The notes below the pieces were generated by a model. The model had not been told where the DNA came from. It saw only the letters and a list, made by a program, of their open reading frames with translations, and searched no databases. 64,000 bases of DNA, from positions 74-64,073 of the forward strand of contig CBFHXH010000008.1 of the NCBI GenBank assembly GCA_965659735.1, given 5' to 3'. Positions 26,330 to 32,035 of this stretch are shown here, piece by piece (within the stretch, counting starts at the first letter, position 1; each line of letters starts with the position of its first letter). Source of the DNA: an uncultured Pikeienuella sp. GTDB taxonomy: Bacteria; Pseudomonadota; Alphaproteobacteria; Rhodobacterales; Rhodobacteraceae. The translations under genes were made by a program, and so were the position numbers.

Positions 26330-28201
26330 ATGATGAAAGATCACGTGACCGAGGAAATTTCCTTCGACGATTTCGATGAAATGGTGAACCCGCGCCCCGA
26401 TGGCTGCGAGTTTGACGATGTTGTGGAACAGGCACTTAACCGCCGCGGCTTCCTCAGCGGCGTTCTGGCCTTTGGCGGCGTCGCAATGGTGGGTGGCGCA
26501 CTGGCACCGAAAGCGCAGGCTGCAGCCCATTCCAGCCGGTTCGCCTTCGATGCGATCGCCACGAACGCGGTCGACGACATTACGCTGCCGCCAGGCTTTT
26601 CATCCAAAATCGTGGTGCGCTGGGGTGATCCGATGACCTCGGGCGGACCAGAATTTGATCACAAAACCCGCGGCACCGCCACTACCCAGGCCGTTACGTT
26701 TGGCGACAACATCGATGGGATGGAGATTTTCGAGGACGGCGACAAAACCATTCTTGTCGTTAACAACGAATACACCAACCGCCGCATTCTGTGGCCCGAT
26801 GGCGCGCCTGCATCGGACGACGACGTCAACAAAGGCAAGATGGCCCACGGCGTCACCGTTGTTGAGGTCGACGGCATGTCGATCGTCAAGGACAGCAAAT
26901 ACAACCGCCGGATCACGCCGGATACGCCAATGGCGATCACCGGCCCCGCAGCTGGTCACGACCTAATGAAAACGGCGGCGGACGCGGCCGGGACATCCTC
27001 GCTGGGCACATGGAACAACTGTGGTTCTGGCTCCACCCCCTGGGGCACGTATCTGGCCTGTGAAGAGAACTTTAACGGCTACTATTCCGCTGCGGACGAA
27101 GCGCACGAAGTGTCGCCGGAATTGGCCCGCTATGGCGTGTCATCGAAGGACTGGGGATACGGCTGGGCGAAGACGGACGAACGGTTCGACGTCTCAAAGC
27201 ACCCGAATGAGCCGAACCGGAACGGTTATGTCGTTGAAATTGATCCAGCCGATCCAACCTCGACCCCCAAGAAGCGCACCGCGCTGGGCCGTTTCAAGCA
27301 TGAGAACGCCGAAGTCGTCATCAACAATGACGGCCGCGTCGTGATCTACATGGGCGACGATGAACGGGGTGAATTCCTGTATCGCTATATCTCGAACGGC
27401 GTCTACGCGCCGGGGGCCGATACGGACGATCTGATGGAAAACGGCACGCTTTACGCGGCCAAGTTCGAAAATGACGGTACCGGCAAATGGATGGAGCTGT
27501 CGCCCGCAACCACCGGCATGGCGACCCAGGCTGAGGTGTGCATCCACACCCGCATCGGCGCCTCCACCGTCGGCGCAACGACGATGGACCGTCCGGAATG
27601 GGTCACGGCGAACCCCAACAAGGCCGAAGTTTACTGCGCCCTGACCAACAACAAGAACCGCGGCGTCAAAACCAACCGGGGCGGCGACGAACAGGTTGTT
27701 GGCGGCCCCAACCCGCGTGAGGCCAACAAGTACGGTCAGATTGTCCGCTGGTGCCCAGCAGATGGCGACCACACCGCTGATGCGTTCGATTGGGATCTGT
27801 TCGTCATGGCTGGCAACCCGACCGTGCACACCGATGCGAAAGCGGGTTCAGCCAACGTGAACGAAGGCAACATGTTCAACTCGCCCGATGGTCTGGCGTT
27901 CGACGATACGGGTCTTCTGTGGATCCAGACAGACGGCAAGTATTCGAACGAAGGCGACTTTGCCGGTCAGGGGAACAACCAGATGCTGGCGGCTGATCCC
28001 GCCACTGGCGAAATCCGGCGCTTCCTGGTTGGGCCAAAGGAATGTGAGGTGACCGGGCTGTGTTGGTCGGCGGACCGCAAGATTATGTATGTCGGCATCC
28101 AGCACCCGGGCGAGCGAGGCGACAGCCAGTGGCCCGACGGCAAACTGCCCCGATCTGCGGTCATCGCCGTGACCCGCGACGATGGCGGTCTGGTCGGCTA
28201 A
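26330..28201 (+). CDS. phoX: Alkaline phosphatase PhoX (Tat-exported)
   Basis: NRRGFL twin-arginine signal; VNNEY, AHGV, NNCGSG, TPWGTYLACEEN, GRFKHE, MDRPEW, SPDGL, QHPG motifs. Confidence 0.95.
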   Translation: MMKDHVTEEISFDDFDEMVNPRPDGCEFDDVVEQALNRRGFLSGVLAFGGVAMVGGALAPKAQAAAHSSRFAFDAIATNAVDDITLPPGFSSKIVVRWGDPMTSGGPEFDHKTRGTATTQAVTFGDNIDGMEIFEDGDKTILVVNNEYTNRRILWPDGAPASDDDVNKGKMAHGVTVVEVDGMSIVKDSKYNRRITPDTPMAITGPAAGHDLMKTAADAAGTSSLGTWNNCGSGSTPWGTYLACEENFNGYYSAADEAHEVSPELARYGVSSKDWGYGWAKTDERFDVSKHPNEPNRNGYVVEIDPADPTSTPKKRTALGRFKHENAEVVINNDGRVVIYMGDDERGEFLYRYISNGVYAPGADTDDLMENGTLYAAKFENDGTGKWMELSPATTGMATQAEVCIHTRIGASTVGATTMDRPEWVTANPNKAEVYCALTNNKNRGVKTNRGGDEQVVGGPNPREANKYGQIVRWCPADGDHTADAFDWDLFVMAGNPTVHTDAKAGSANVNEGNMFNSPDGLAFDDTGLLWIQTDGKYSNEGDFAGQGNNQMLAADPATGEIRRFLVGPKECEVTGLCWSADRKIMYVGIQHPGERGDSQWPDGKLPRSAVIAVTRDDGGLVG

Positions 28202-28273: not shown

Positions 28274-29509
28274 TCAGGCGCCGACGATGTTGTGTTCCGG
28301 CCCATAGGGGAAGCCGGTGATGTTCTCCGGCCCGTCATCGCCCAGAACGACAATGTCATGTTCCCGGTATCCGCCCACGCCCGGTGCGCCTTCGGGCAGG
28401 GTCAGCATCGGCTCCATCGACACGACCATGCCTCTGGTCAGTTCAGTGTCGATATCTTCGCGCAGCTCCAGCCCCGCTTCGCGGCCATAGTAATGCGACA
28501 GCACGCCAAACGAATGGCCGTAGCCGAAGGACCGGTATTGCAGCAGATCGCGGGTGGCGAAGAACTCGTTGATCTCAGCGCAGACGCCATCGCAGGTCGC
28601 GCCTTCGCGGATCAGGCTCAGCCCCAATTTGTGGGCACCGACATTCGCCTCCCAGATCGCCAGCGAGGCGGTGTCGGGTTCACCTACAAAAAGCGTCCGC
28701 TCCAACGCTGTGTAGTAACCGGATATCATCGGAAATGTGTTGAGGCTGAGGATATCGCCCACCTCCAACCGGCGAGTTGTCACCGGGTTGTGGGCACCGT
28801 CTGTATTCAGCCCGGACTGGAACCAGACCCAGCTGTCACGCAGTTCGCTGTCGGGATGGCTGGCGGCGATCTCAGCCTCCATCGCGTCCCGGCCCGCCAT
28901 GGCGACGTCGATTTCGCGAACGCCTACCCTGATCGCATCGCGTACTGCCACGCCGCCAACATCGGCGATGCGCGCGCCTTCGCGGATCAAGGCGATCTCT
29001 TCGTCTGACTTCACCATCCGCTGGGTCATCGTCGCCGGGGCGATATCGACGCCTTCCGCACCTAGAAATTCAAACAGCTTGCGGCTTTGCGCCAGGGTCA
29101 GATGATCACCCTCGATCCCCACCCGGCGGACCTTGCCAACGATATCGCGCACGGCGCGCCAGTAATTGTCCCGCCGCCAGTCGGTGTAGACGACGTTTTC
29201 GTCCGCACTGCGCCGCCAGGGCTGACCGCCATCGATATTTGCTGAAACCGTAACTGACCGATCTTGCGTGACGACGCAGGCGTAGGGCCGACCAAAGGCG
29301 CAGTAGAGGAACCCGGAATAATACGCGACGCCTTGCATAGAGGTAAGGATCGCCGCCTCTACCCCCGTCTCAGCCATGATCGCGCGCAGGCCCGCCAACC
29401 GCCGGTCATATTCAGCGCGGCTAAAGGGAAGCGGCGCTTTCGCACCGTTCTGGAACGAAAAGAAGTCAGGCCGGGATACCGGCTGAGTTTTCAGATTTTG
29501 TTGTGTCAT
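28274..29509 (-). CDS. Creatinase (creatine amidinohydrolase, M24 fold)
   Basis: YYSGFLYCAFGRPY, SANIDGGQPWRR, YTDW, WFQSGLNTDGAHNPVT, YYTALERTLF and SHYYGREAGLELRED, all characteristic of creatinases; ATG 29509 with GGAGG. Confidence 0.92.
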   Translation of the reverse strand: MTQQNLKTQPVSRPDFFSFQNGAKAPLPFSRAEYDRRLAGLRAIMAETGVEAAILTSMQGVAYYSGFLYCAFGRPYACVVTQDRSVTVSANIDGGQPWRRSADENVVYTDWRRDNYWRAVRDIVGKVRRVGIEGDHLTLAQSRKLFEFLGAEGVDIAPATMTQRMVKSDEEIALIREGARIADVGGVAVRDAIRVGVREIDVAMAGRDAMEAEIAASHPDSELRDSWVWFQSGLNTDGAHNPVTTRRLEVGDILSLNTFPMISGYYTALERTLFVGEPDTASLAIWEANVGAHKLGLSLIREGATCDGVCAEINEFFATRDLLQYRSFGYGHSFGVLSHYYGREAGLELREDIDTELTRGMVVSMEPMLTLPEGAPGVGGYREHDIVVLGDDGPENITGFPYGPEHNIVGA

Positions 29510-29512
29510 CGT

Positions 29513-29640
29513 GACCTCCAAAAGTGTGGGAGGTCGGAGCGGACTCCAATCTCCCGATTGAAAGTCCCGGCGTTCAGGATGGTGAATGAGCGGAAGTCAT
29601 ACTTCCCGGCGACGCCATCACCGCTAAGCTCAACGCCCGT
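29513..29640 (-). promoter_or_regulatory. Structured 5' leader (candidate cis-regulatory RNA) of creatinase
   Basis: Two CGCCGGGA-[hairpin]-UCCGCUC units and a GACCUCC/GGAGGUC hairpin that occludes the SD. Confidence 0.55.
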
Positions 29641-29708
29641 TTGGCACAGAACATGGGCGCGCGCAAAGCAGTTTTTGCAGGCTTGCTTTTCGTCGCCGGC
29701 TGCCGGGC

Positions 29709-30086
29709 CTAGTCCTGACCTATCGTTGGCGCCCAGACGCCTTCCAGATGCGCCGCCTCGTGATCACCCGGCCAGGGCGGCATTGAAATGCAGATGAACT
29801 TCAGCGGCGCATCACCCAAATTGCGGTACTGAAAGGCGGTTCCGACGGGAATGTCGATGGATACGCCGGGCGCCAGCCGCGTGATCCGTTCTTCCTGGTT
29901 GTCGCGCCGCCAAATCTCACCTTCGCCTTCCAGCACATGCCAGAACTCGCTGAACGTTGCGTGGATGGTGGCCCGGTTAATCTGGCCCGGCGGCACGGTG
30001 CTGTGGATCATGTTGCCGGTTGCCCCGTCCATGATGAACCGAATATCCGCGCCCGCTGGCGACTTGGCGTCCGGGTATTGCGGCAC
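29709..30086 (-). CDS. Cupin-domain protein
   Basis: EFWHVLEGEGEIW and DIPVGTAFQYRN cupin motifs. Confidence 0.85.
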   Translation of the reverse strand: MPQYPDAKSPAGADIRFIMDGATGNMIHSTVPPGQINRATIHATFSEFWHVLEGEGEIWRRDNQEERITRLAPGVSIDIPVGTAFQYRNLGDAPLKFICISMPPWPGDHEAAHLEGVWAPTIGQD

Positions 30087-30126: not shown

Positions 30127-31644
30127 CTAAGGGTCCAGCGTATTCAGTTCCCGTCGCATGATCTTGCCAGTGCTGGTCTTTGGCACATCGTCCACGAACC
30201 GAACAGCGCGGGGGCATTTATAAGCGGCCAGGGTTTCGCGGCAGTGGGCGATCATCTCCGCCTCGGTCGCCTCGACGCCGGTTTTCAACACAACATAGGC
30301 CTTAGCAATTTCACCCTTCATTTCGTCAGGCAGCTTGCCAACCGCCGCCAGCGCAACGGCGGGATGTGCGGCGAGAACACGTTCGATCTCGGCGGGATAG
30401 ACATTGTATCCACCGGTCAGGATCATGTCCTTCTTGCGATCGACGATGCAGACACAGCCGTCTTCGTCCATCGTGCCCAGATCACCTGTATGAAGCCATC
30501 CATCGGGTTCCAACGTCTCACGCGTTTTCGCCTCGTCGCCGTAATAGCCCATCATCACGATTGGACCGCGCACCATCAATTCGCCCACCTCACCGCGTGG
30601 CATCGTCTGGTTGGTGTCGTCGACGTGCGCAATCTTCAGCTCACAATACGGCAGCGCACAGCCAATGGAGCCATGCTTGTTCGACCCATACAGTGGATGG
30701 GTTGAGCCCAGACCGGCGATCTCGGTCATCCCCCACAATTCGATCAGTGGGACTTGGAACGCAGCCTCCACCGCCTCCATGGTCGCCACCGGCATGGTCT
30801 GGCCACCGACATAGCAGCGGCGCAGGCTGGAAAGATCAGTCGTTTCAACCTCTGGCGCATTCAGCATGAACATGTACATGGCTGGCACGCCATCAAAGAT
30901 CGTCGCCTTGTGCGCCGCAATGTCGGCAAAGGCGGCGGCGGGATCGAATGTGCGGTGCAAAACCAGTTTGGTCCCATACAGCATCATGCCCATCATGATC
31001 ACATTGGCGTAGACATGCGGGCAAGGCAGCGCGCTGACCACGCAATCGTCCGCCCCGCGCATCTGCATCTGGCTGGTCATTGCGCCATTAACAATCACCG
31101 CCTTGTGCGACTGCATCGCGCCCTTGGGCCTGCCGGTGGTGCCTGATGTGTAGCCAATGGTCGACAGGGCGGTGGGCGCAACATCCACCATCGGCGGGGG
31201 CGGGATTTTGGCCGCAAGCATGGCGTTGAATGAAACGGCGCCTTCTGGCGCATCGCCGAGTGAGATGATGGATTTCACGTCAGAGATATCCTTGACGCCC
31301 ATGATCGCCGCAACCTTGTCAGATGAAGCGATGATCGCCGTCGCGCCGCAATCCTTGACGACATATTCAATCTCGTCAGGCGTCAGCATCGTGTTGACTG
31401 GATTAATGACGGCGCCCAGCCGGGCAATGGCGTAGTAGCTAACGATCCATTCCCAGGAATTCGCGGCGTAGAGCGTAACAATGTCGCCGGGTTTGACCGC
31501 CAGATCGTGCAGCCCGCCAGCGGCGTCTTCGATCAGGCTGTTCAGATCGCTGAAAGTGAAGGAACGGCCTTCGAACACCAGCGCTTCTTTGTCCGAAAAC
31601 TTCGTTGCGGCGGCGGCTGCAATCTGGCCGATGTGATCGAACAT
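30127..31644 (-). CDS. AMP-dependent acyl/aryl-CoA synthetase
   Basis: YTSGTTGRPKG, WGMTE, LHTGD, DRKKDM, PKTSTGK motifs; start ATG 31644 with GGAGGAA. Confidence 0.93.
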   Translation of the reverse strand: MFDHIGQIAAAAATKFSDKEALVFEGRSFTFSDLNSLIEDAAGGLHDLAVKPGDIVTLYAANSWEWIVSYYAIARLGAVINPVNTMLTPDEIEYVVKDCGATAIIASSDKVAAIMGVKDISDVKSIISLGDAPEGAVSFNAMLAAKIPPPPMVDVAPTALSTIGYTSGTTGRPKGAMQSHKAVIVNGAMTSQMQMRGADDCVVSALPCPHVYANVIMMGMMLYGTKLVLHRTFDPAAAFADIAAHKATIFDGVPAMYMFMLNAPEVETTDLSSLRRCYVGGQTMPVATMEAVEAAFQVPLIELWGMTEIAGLGSTHPLYGSNKHGSIGCALPYCELKIAHVDDTNQTMPRGEVGELMVRGPIVMMGYYGDEAKTRETLEPDGWLHTGDLGTMDEDGCVCIVDRKKDMILTGGYNVYPAEIERVLAAHPAVALAAVGKLPDEMKGEIAKAYVVLKTGVEATEAEMIAHCRETLAAYKCPRAVRFVDDVPKTSTGKIMRRELNTLDP

Positions 31645-32035
31645 GATCGTCTTCCTCCCCTTTCGGTTGGTGGCATCTAAAACCTTCGGTGGCAGCGTGT
31701 TGATTTGGCGGGGCAGAGTCAATTACACCATCGCGCGACGTGGGGGAGGACGTTTCACGACAGATCATTTCGTATCAAGGATCAAACAGATAAAAGAGGT
31801 TAACAAATAATTAAAACATATTATTTTCATAGTGTTATGTTTGATTTCATGCGTGAAGCCATGCAGGTTTCACATCTTGCCAGCCAGTACAATCGCCAGC
31901 ATCTCTCGCTCGCCGAATTGGGTGGCCAGGATCCGAATGATGCGGGCGTTCAGCGAACCGGTTGCTTCAAAAACTGCGCAGATCAAAGCCAATTTCGCGC
32001 CAGGTGGCGTCGGGCGATTATCTGGGCGACGCGCC

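Follow-up and report, generated by a model that had tools for sequence, protein, structure and literature searches.

A conserved structured mRNA leader of creatinase genes in Rhodobacterales, a candidate translational riboswitch for guanidino acids

Introduction

How is creatine use turned on in the bacteria that live on it? Ruegeria isolates of the family Rhodobacteraceae grow with creatine as sole carbon and nitrogen source via creatinase (bioRxiv 10.1101/2020.12.31.424895). CahR of Pseudomonas putida and AmtR of Corynebacterium glutamicum are reported to regulate creatinase expression according to creatine or nitrogen status (PMC12623156, PMC8864220, bioRxiv 10.1101/2021.11.02.466972). In a 64,000-nucleotide stretch of DNA from a marine bacterium, an uncultured Pikeienuella sp. 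of the Rhodobacteraceae (hereafter the window), a creatinase gene on the minus strand is preceded by a segment that was predicted to form a riboswitch-like leader. We asked whether this leader is a conserved RNA, what it controls and how it could act. Unlike CahR and AmtR, which are DNA-binding proteins acting on promoters, the conserved element found here is a structured mRNA leader.

Results

The creatinase locus

Judged by its sequence, the gene downstream of the leader is a genuine creatinase. It occupies 28274..29509 on the minus strand, and its product matches the creatine amidinohydrolases of PDB entries 7YTO (E 2e-158) and 1CHM (E 3e-155) and carries the Pfam domains Creatinase_N and Peptidase_M24. 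A mechanical list of open reading frames puts the start of the gene at TTG 29521. AUG 29509 fits better as the start codon, both with the Shine-Dalgarno (SD) sequence and with the alignment to the solved creatinases. The spacing between GGAGG and this AUG is 5 nt, one more than the 4 nt originally given.

Following the minus strand, the gene of a small cupin protein (29709-30086, minus) ends at 29709 and the creatinase AUG comes about 200 nt further on. An acyl-CoA ligase gene (30127-31722, minus) also lies nearby, and the gene of a PhoX alkaline phosphatase (26330-28201, plus) is convergent with creatinase. None of these three neighbours recurs beside the motif in other genomes. The leader is present in one copy in its own genome.

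Distribution of the leader

With the leader as query, BLAST gave matches in 10 of 201 genomes of the same family, located 5' of creatinase or of a second type of gene. Scanning one genome per species with the exact pattern GATGGCGTCG..CTGNACGCCGGG gave more than 120 stretches, mostly from Rhodobacterales. Among 130 instances of the pattern, 92 are directly upstream of creatinase homologues, 10 are upstream of the second gene and 28 are elsewhere. Four of these 28 are genuine leaders, three of them at loci cut by contig ends (L049, L098 and L135) and one before a membrane protein (L033); the other 24 are chance matches inside GC-rich coding DNA of other phyla.

Among 401 sampled Rhodobacterales genomes, 295 were matched by R1, a covariance model built from 106 instances; the matches cover 121 of 138 genera and come almost entirely from one family. 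When R1 was applied to a 401-genome sample of the class, only 4 genomes outside the family were matched, and the three outside-family matches that we read (L199, L204 and L205, with L206 left out) all precede creatinase. Beyond its main family, the motif is found with creatinase in three other alphaproteobacterial families. In the same Rhodobacterales genomes creatinase itself (E <=1e-100) is present in 288 of 401, and among the first 20 motif-free genomes listed, 17 are also without creatinase. The leader is conserved with compensatory changes in more than 120 genera, which is far beyond chance.

Structure of the leader

The predicted conserved architecture is a helix P0 around a hairpin P1 and a variable hairpin P2, then a linker, then a hairpin P4. 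In the window this aptamer is about 75 nt long (29632-29560), and all of its parts are on the minus strand. P1 (29607..29623) is CGGUGA-UGGCG-UCGCCG with the loop UGGCG at 29617-29613, and P4 (29565..29579) is UCC-UGAACGCCG-GGA with the loop ACGCC at 29573-29569. In relatives P1 is a local hairpin, GGYGAUGGCGUCRCC, whose outer pairs covary (consensus NNNRY-GAUGGCGUC-RYNNN). Its UGGCG loop shows no variation in any leader found by the covariance model. The P4 consensus is (R)UCC-UGNACGCC(G/C)-GGA(Y), with UGNACGCCS as the loop.

The original prediction had named conservation and covariation in homologous leaders as a check, and there P1 and P4 do covary. We used the 59 sequences that were found by the covariance model and not by the pattern; the structure in that model did not include P4. 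P1 pair 8-18 is CG in 53, UA in 6 and unpaired in none, and pair 7-19 is GC in 50, AU in 4, GU in 3 and UA in 1. P4 pair 103-119 is GC in 37, AU in 16 and GU in 4; pair 104-118 is UA in 56, CG in 2 and UG in 1; and pair 105-117 is CG in 56, UA in 2 and UG in 1. In this set 98.7% of the P4 cells are paired. For P1 and P4 together, 90.9% of cells are paired vs 80.6% in shuffles and 10 of 11 pairs show changes in both strands, values that none of 500 shuffles attains. In slid controls pairing drops to 31-48%. RNAalifold predicts both hairpins unaided, and the G-U pairs in the helices occur on the mRNA strand only.

P0 is formed in the window by UGAGC (29628..29632) and GCUCA (29587..29591). Its letters vary from leader to leader (GAGC/GCUC, GGGC/GCCC, AGGGU/ACCCU, CAGGGC/GCCCUG). 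Because varying spacer lengths prevent a clean MAFFT alignment of P0 and P2, P0 was tested by enrichment. A helix of at least 4 bp is found in 71 of 106 leaders vs 31-46 after shuffling, and in 94 of 148 vs 58 +/- 5 when the 5' flanks are swapped between leaders. P2 in the window is GGAAGU-AUG-ACUUCC (29592..29606); most relatives have hairpins of unrelated sequence in its place, and some have none. The linker, UUCACCA (29580..29586) in the window, varies among relatives in length and sequence.

The two conserved loops are complementary, GGCG(U) of P1 with (A)CGCC of P4, and the P1 loop is the only conserved complement of ACGCC. A GGCG:CGCC kissing contact between P1 and P4 is likely, judging from the complementarity of these two near-invariant loops.

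Upstream of the aptamer, a putative promoter (29639..29668, minus) consists of CTTTGCG (29668-29662) and GCCAAAC (29645-29639), and would place the transcription start just 5' of P0. A sigma-70 scan found nothing at 29639..29668. In relatives, boxes reading TTGCCA..GGCAAG or CTTCCCC..GCTATAT stand equally far upstream of P0. In many leaders (L036, L040, L057, L061, L099, L100 and others) a promoter region resembling a palindrome, cTTGCCAGA-N~14-GGCAAG, is found some 35-45 nt 5' of P1. The window boxes CTTTGCG..GCCAAAC are a weak version of it, and leaders of the second gene type have CTTCCCC..GCTATAT in its place. The cTTGCCAGA..GGCAAG region could be an unusual -35/-10 pair, or a transcription-factor operator adding a second layer of control.

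Just past the cupin stop, 29691-29699 is a perfect 9-nt complement (CCGGCGACG on the mRNA strand) to the P1 3' strand (29606-29614). Transcripts that continue from the upstream genes into the leader could let it compete with P1. Relatives, which have other upstream genes, did not show it.

Pairing with the Shine-Dalgarno sequence

The SD sequence of the creatinase gene is GGAGGUC (29513..29519, minus). With GACCUCC (29535-29529) it forms a perfect 7-bp inverted repeat, as had been noted. The aptamer is followed by a switching tail, GGGACUUUCAA (29558..29568, minus), which shares GGA with P4. In the free minimum-energy fold (-54.0 kcal/mol) the tail (29566-29558) pairs with the SD region (29521-29513), an arrangement that resembles the simpler leaders of relatives. 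The fold with a hairpin at 29567-29541 and the GACCUCC/GGAGGUC helix has -52.4 kcal/mol, 1.6 above the optimum. The SD is hidden in both. The SD hairpin of the original prediction is thus a near-optimal SD-hiding fold, but it is not supported as the only off-state.

Between the tail and the SD region, a relay segment (29528..29557, minus) has two alternative folds. In one, it provides the 3' half of the hairpin GGACUU-U-CAAUC GGGA GAUUG GAGUCC (29567-29541), followed by the anti-SD GACCUCC (29535-29529). In the other, which lies inside the loop closed by the tail-SD pairing of the free fold, GGGAG:CUCCC (29555-29551 with 29532-29528) closes around UUGGAG-UCCG-CUCCGA. The same a/s'/a'/s arrangement, in different letters, is found in other long leaders too. 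In the window, the probability that the SD is unpaired rises from 0.02 in the free fold to 0.43 when the P4 and loop nucleotides are withheld.

The short leaders, which are the commonest, are simpler. The P4 3' strand continues as GGGACCUUUC, and GGAGGGUC follows a few bases on, then the start codon; the tail-SD helix uses the same G-A-C as P4. The best tail:SD duplex contains all of G81, A82 and C83 in 54 of 59 short, 46 of 88 long and 100 of 147 leaders overall, and the GUC behind the SD is a second pairing partner for these three nucleotides of P4. In L060, inspected by eye, the tail is GGGGCC and the letters after the SD are GGCC, a compensatory case (GGGGCC..GGAGGGCC). Since both use the same G-A-C, P4 and the SD-sequestering helix are mutually exclusive. 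The expression platform shares nucleotides with the aptamer, as a riboswitch would require.

We also imposed P4 on 148 leaders in a crude thermodynamic calculation. The median unpaired probability of the SD was 0.20 vs 0.22, that is, no general opening, in a model where only the GGA of P4 is blocked and the rest of the tail remains free to pair with the SD. Some leaders allow P4 to form together with a shortened anti-SD helix, and the two might stack, as would suit an OFF switch. Because this calculation shows no general effect, the ON sign proposed below is drawn from the architecture and from the logic of substrate induction. No intrinsic terminators were found in the leaders, and control appears to be translational. 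The originally predicted structured creatinase leader, with an expression platform acting on the SD, is supported.

Downstream genes and candidate ligands

The motif lies before creatinase at 136 loci, before an arginine:glycine amidinotransferase homologue at 10 (the second gene type above; E 1e-85 to PDB 1JDW), before EamA transporters at 5 and before a short-chain dehydrogenase at 1. No second conserved gene was found downstream, so the motif-controlled units are monocistronic; the flanking genes differ from locus to locus. At L024 (1360-4117) a creatinase gene and an adjacent amidinotransferase gene converge, and a separate copy of the motif precedes each of them. Another such convergent pair is present at G249:C5:117901-121282. 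The pairing suggests that both enzymes serve one pathway, for example guanidinoacetate use or a glycine-cycling conversion of arginine to ornithine and urea.

The common theme of the controlled genes is the amidino group of guanidino acids. A guanidino compound, the ligand class first proposed, is a sensible choice in view of these genes. Control of creatinase, the amidinotransferase homologue and EamA points to a guanidino acid, creatine and/or guanidinoacetate, as the probable ligand. Creatine is the simplest candidate because about 90% of motif copies control creatinase. Guanidinoacetate would account better than creatine for the association with the amidinotransferase. Amidinotransferases are not known to use creatine, which makes a single ligand for all three gene classes uncertain.

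The P4 loop also occurs in a variant form, ACGCCCGGA, with G changed to C just before the P4 3' strand. Fifteen leaders carry it, 10 before creatinase, 4 before EamA and 1 before the dehydrogenase. Only 1 of the 137 standard-loop leaders precedes an EamA gene, and 4 of the 5 EamA leaders have the variant. The change may alter specificity or may just mark a lineage. Loci with ACGCCCGGA are L169-L172, L175, L178-L179, L181-L187, L189, L191 and L205. The copy at L178 (G286:C5), before the short-chain dehydrogenase, is a weaker match to the motif (36 bits) with the C variant.

Comparison with known systems

Rfam 15 was searched with two representatives, the window leader and L108, and gave no family match at E up to 10, in agreement with the original view that the leader does not fit the guanidine I-III, glycine, fluoride or SAM-II consensus. 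The scan returned only chance-level matches to unrelated families (mir-7940, TYMV_upPK and drz-agam-2-2), and the whole 64-kb window had no match at the gathering score. None of the Rfam covariance models for guanidine-I, -II, -III and -IV, fluoride (crcB), glycine and SAM-II matched. No riboswitch for creatine or guanidinoacetate, or of creatinase or amidinotransferase genes, was found in Rfam 15 or in the full-text literature searched, which took in few subscription journals. The leader class is not in Rfam and probably represents a new riboswitch.

In architecture, the nearest known RNA is guanidine-II (mini-ykkC, RF01068). Guanidine-II RNAs have two small hairpins with conserved C/G-containing ACGR tetraloops and a variable linker, and a loop-loop pocket has been proposed for them. 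They bind guanidinium and control guanidine carboxylase and SMR exporter genes at the level of translation, the SD being adjacent to the 3' hairpin. The leader described here shares the two small conserved-loop hairpins, the variable linker, the proposed loop-loop pocket, the apparently translational control with an SD adjacent to the 3' hairpin, and presumably a ligand of the guanidinium class. It differs in its loops, which on comparison are UGGCG and UGNACGCC(G/C) instead of two ACGR tetraloops. Its hairpins are dissimilar to each other, P0 and the optional P2 enclose the first of them, and the controlled genes are creatinase, amidinotransferase and EamA instead of guanidine carboxylase or SMR exporters.

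A different resemblance is to guanidine-IV (mepA), fluoride crcB, SAM-II and preQ1-II, in which a loop pairs with a distal 3' segment overlapped by the expression platform. The P1 sequence GGCGAUGGCGUCGCC resembles the 5' hairpin of fluoride riboswitches. Unlike these four classes, the leader has no covariance model match at E up to 10, controls other genes, and appears to act translationally, with no terminators.

Discussion

The leader is a conserved structured 5' element with covarying helices, located in cis to functionally related genes, as is generally expected of a riboswitch. We give somewhat better than an even chance to the view that it belongs to a class of cis-regulatory RNA not described before and is most likely a riboswitch that binds a metabolite, acting as a translational ON switch for creatine/guanidinoacetate. 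In the model we propose, the near-invariant loops of P1 and P4 would be held by a variable scaffold of P0, the optional P2 and the linker, and the two hairpins would dock via the GGCG:CGCC interaction to form the ligand pocket. The P4 3' strand (GGAC/GGGAC) runs into a pyrimidine tail, CUUUC, and together they are also complementary to the ribosome-binding site and the following GUC. Without ligand, the tail would pair with the SD, directly or through relay hairpins of the window type, and translation would be blocked. With ligand, P4 would be kept shut and the tail withdrawn, so that the SD opens.

The same RNA could work with the opposite sign or with another ligand, shutting creatinase, amidinotransferase and EamA on a product or nitrogen-sufficiency signal such as urea, glycine, sarcosine, glutamine or free guanidine, with P4 as the ligand-free anti-sequestering fold. 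We regard this as unlikely. The calculation over 148 leaders gave no clear ON signal, and several leaders have P4 directly next to a hairpin in which the SD remains covered, where stacking could stabilise sequestration. The relay architecture gives the same sign in either model, and a nitrogen signal has a precedent in the reported control of Corynebacterium creatinase by AmtR (PMC8864220). Yet the 5' strand and loop of P4 are among the most conserved parts of the leader, as expected of a ligand-bound aptamer and not of a mere alternative helix. In most leaders the GUC behind the SD is a pairing partner of the P4 GAC, which makes the two helices mutually exclusive, and substrate induction is usual for catabolic genes and a transporter. 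All three points speak against this alternative. A further alternative, to which we give a quite low probability, is that the invariant loops of P1 and P4 are the recognition site of an RNA-binding regulator instead of parts of a small-molecule pocket. Two invariant-loop hairpins with a variable spacer would also suit a dimeric RNA-binding protein. However, the genes beside the leader vary by locus and include no conserved regulator, the two loops are complementary to each other, and movement of the motif with creatinase into three other families is easier for a self-contained RNA sensor.

The layout proposed originally, tandem ligand-binding units of CGCCGGGA-hairpin-UCCGCUC in which the GACCUCC/GGAGGUC hairpin alone serves as expression platform, now seems very improbable. 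Its repeats are real in the window: CGCCGGGA is at 29611-29604 and 29572-29565 and UCCGCUC at 29594-29588 and 29543-29537 (minus), both inner hairpins pair, and the SD hairpin belongs to the near-optimal fold at -52.4 kcal/mol. Among homologous leaders, however, CGCCGGG follows P1 in only 6 of 148, UCCGCUC is not conserved, and most have no second hairpin of that kind. The enclosing helices GGUGAUG/CAUUCACC and GGCGUU/AACGCC are likewise particular to the window and were not found in relatives. What had been read as the first unit is really the P1 3' strand, P2 and the P0 3' strand, and the second is the P4 loop plus the downstream relay hairpin. Least probable of all, to the point of being negligible, is that the conserved letters are a DNA-level operator, a leader peptide or a dispersed repeat and not a structured RNA. 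GGCGTC and GNACGCC do form an inverted repeat in DNA, but the spacing between the halves varies from about 30 to 110 nt and G-U pairs in the helices are confined to one strand. GAUGGCG contains an AUG that, in the window, is in frame with the UGA of CCUGA. As a leader peptide this is rejected, since the reading frame is not maintained (61/45/42 over the three frames), open frames range from 4 to >99 codons, and only 103 of 148 leaders have A as the N of UGN. A dispersed genomic repeat is ruled out by the single copy in the genome.

Returning to the translational ON switch, the reading that joins all its parts is more tentative, and we put it somewhat short of an even chance. It holds that the leader is the first natural riboswitch class for creatine and/or guanidinoacetate, with a two-hairpin loop-loop aptamer, a distant analogue of guanidine-II, that recognises a substituted guanidinium and occurs in roughly three quarters of the Rhodobacteraceae genomes sampled. 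Validation should be feasible within a few weeks, as the motif is abundant, about 75 nt long and has an obvious short list of ligands. If true, it would add a new ligand class to the guanidine-related riboswitches, and the ACGCCCGGA variant, enriched before EamA transporters, could be a second specificity class. Creatine-type metabolites are of interest in clinical diagnosis, and the RNA would give a compact natural sensor for them. For the organisms themselves, it would explain how roseobacters, key marine heterotrophs, turn on creatine use, and this RNA would govern how phosphagen precursors from animals and algae enter the nitrogen metabolism of marine bacteria.
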